A stretch of 56,748 nucleotides of DNA, taken from contig CACKQA010000001.1 of NCBI GenBank assembly GCA_902602135.1, forward strand, positions 1 through 56,748. Direction: 5' to 3'. The DNA is from an uncultured Alphaproteobacteria bacterium (GTDB lineage: Bacteria; Pseudomonadota; Alphaproteobacteria; HIMB59; GCA-002718135). Below, a report on this DNA, generated by a model with database tools, continues. The letters are not shown here.

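Follow-up and report, generated by a model that had tools for sequence, protein, structure and literature searches.

Results and Discussion

Comparison of window positions 33000-44500 with ten single-cell genomes (L001, L003-L005, L007-L011 and L056) indicated that the block running from Sno1 to Sno3, the two-domain NTF2/SnoaL-like genes at the cassette ends, shares 99.2-100% nucleotide identity, while the flanks share 90-98%. The gene content of the left flank was different in three of the ten. Block identity above that of the flanks, together with the left-flank differences, suggests that the window's version of the cassette spread recently, by a gene-specific sweep or by transfer. The near-identical block leaves out the HisD-like gene.

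In the islands carrying the other SAR11 version of the cassette (variant B), we observed a further palindrome, TGTGAATTTCACA, which is fully conserved in the lacI/SBP spacer (L012-L053 and other variant-B loci) and reads GTGCATTTTGCAC in L045, L049 and L050. It is located between the LacI operator and the start of the solute-binding protein gene, for example approximately 30 nt upstream of that start in L017, and it is not present in the window. It could be the site of a second regulator or a 5'-UTR hairpin.

The HAD-fold protein of the island has FGSIGT where the catalytic FDxDGT would be expected, as do all the SAR11 orthologues read and the protein of L062, a related locus without LacI, and it is probably not a phosphatase. 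In the roseobacter and rhizobial clusters, a PcaD-like alpha/beta hydrolase is found instead of this protein.

Features of the window and of related loci
Sequence	Feature	Positions	Strand	Remarks
Window	GMC oxidoreductase	27485-29086	-	Choline-dehydrogenase-like; abuts xsc
Window	CysQ, APS-kinase-like P-loop protein (137 aa), nucleotidyltransferase-like protein (131 aa)	30107-31711		Adjoin HisD-like gene
Window	HisD-like	31713-33032	-	
Window	HAD-fold protein	41876-42535		
Window	Second MetE-like, folate-domain-less	48741-49841	-	Directly downstream of PehA-like gene
Window	PehA-like sulfatase/phosphoesterase	49798-51333	-	
L059, Eubacteriales MAG	LacI relative and operon	9068-15861		
L061	Region with the inserted genes	8709-14739		
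L065, Marinovum pMaD9	Cluster and neighbours	16273-26274		
L068, Vibrio pelagius pATCC25916	Cluster and neighbours	13710-19876		

CysQ scores over its equivalog cut-off, and the metagenome locus L063 has cysN/C, cysD and cysQ at the matching position; the three window genes are predicted to form a PAPS-related trio. The lineage carrying it is not known to perform assimilatory sulfate reduction. The GMC oxidoreductase scores under the BetA cut-offs and may supply sulfoacetaldehyde to Xsc, because the isethionate dehydrogenase IseJ is of the same choline-dehydrogenase-like type. The second MetE-like protein is a better Meth_synt_2 match (E 3e-39). The island's MetE-like protein has an orthologue in Ruegeria, to which this second protein is only 22% identical.

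In the Vibrio plasmid, genes for heterotetrameric sarcosine oxidase and purU come after the NTF2 and ABC module. DMSP demethylation genes of the dmdA type lie next to the Marinovum cluster, as does a gene for a GcvT-domain dehydrogenase. This recurrence of C1/demethylation genes may be coincidental. In one LacI-less, SAR11-like genome (L061), the HisD-family gene is separated from the module by several inserted genes, which encode an alternative oxidase, a second CUT1 transporter and a GH63-like protein of the mannosylglycerate-hydrolase type. In the Eubacteriales MAG, a distant LacI relative (32% identity) adjoins an operon of a double-SnoaL protein, Zn-ADH, MBL-fold hydrolase, KduI/IolB cupin and 2-hydroxyacid dehydrogenase. 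Double-NTF2 and cupin genes are thus paired under LacI in Firmicutes as well.

When the window's HisD-like gene was compared with those of L021, L040, L045, L050, L061 and L062, the HisD-family paralogues of different SAR11 genomes fell into two types, one of 439 aa with GKFPM and one of 428 aa with GRYNN. The latter has 55% identity to CpHpsN, a DHPS-3-dehydrogenase, and in L021, L040, L045 and L050 it lies directly downstream of Sno1, in the slot of the HisD-like gene. Unlike HpsN, both types lack His126. Tallies of SAR11 'hpsN' made by homology may lump the GKFPM and GRYNN types.
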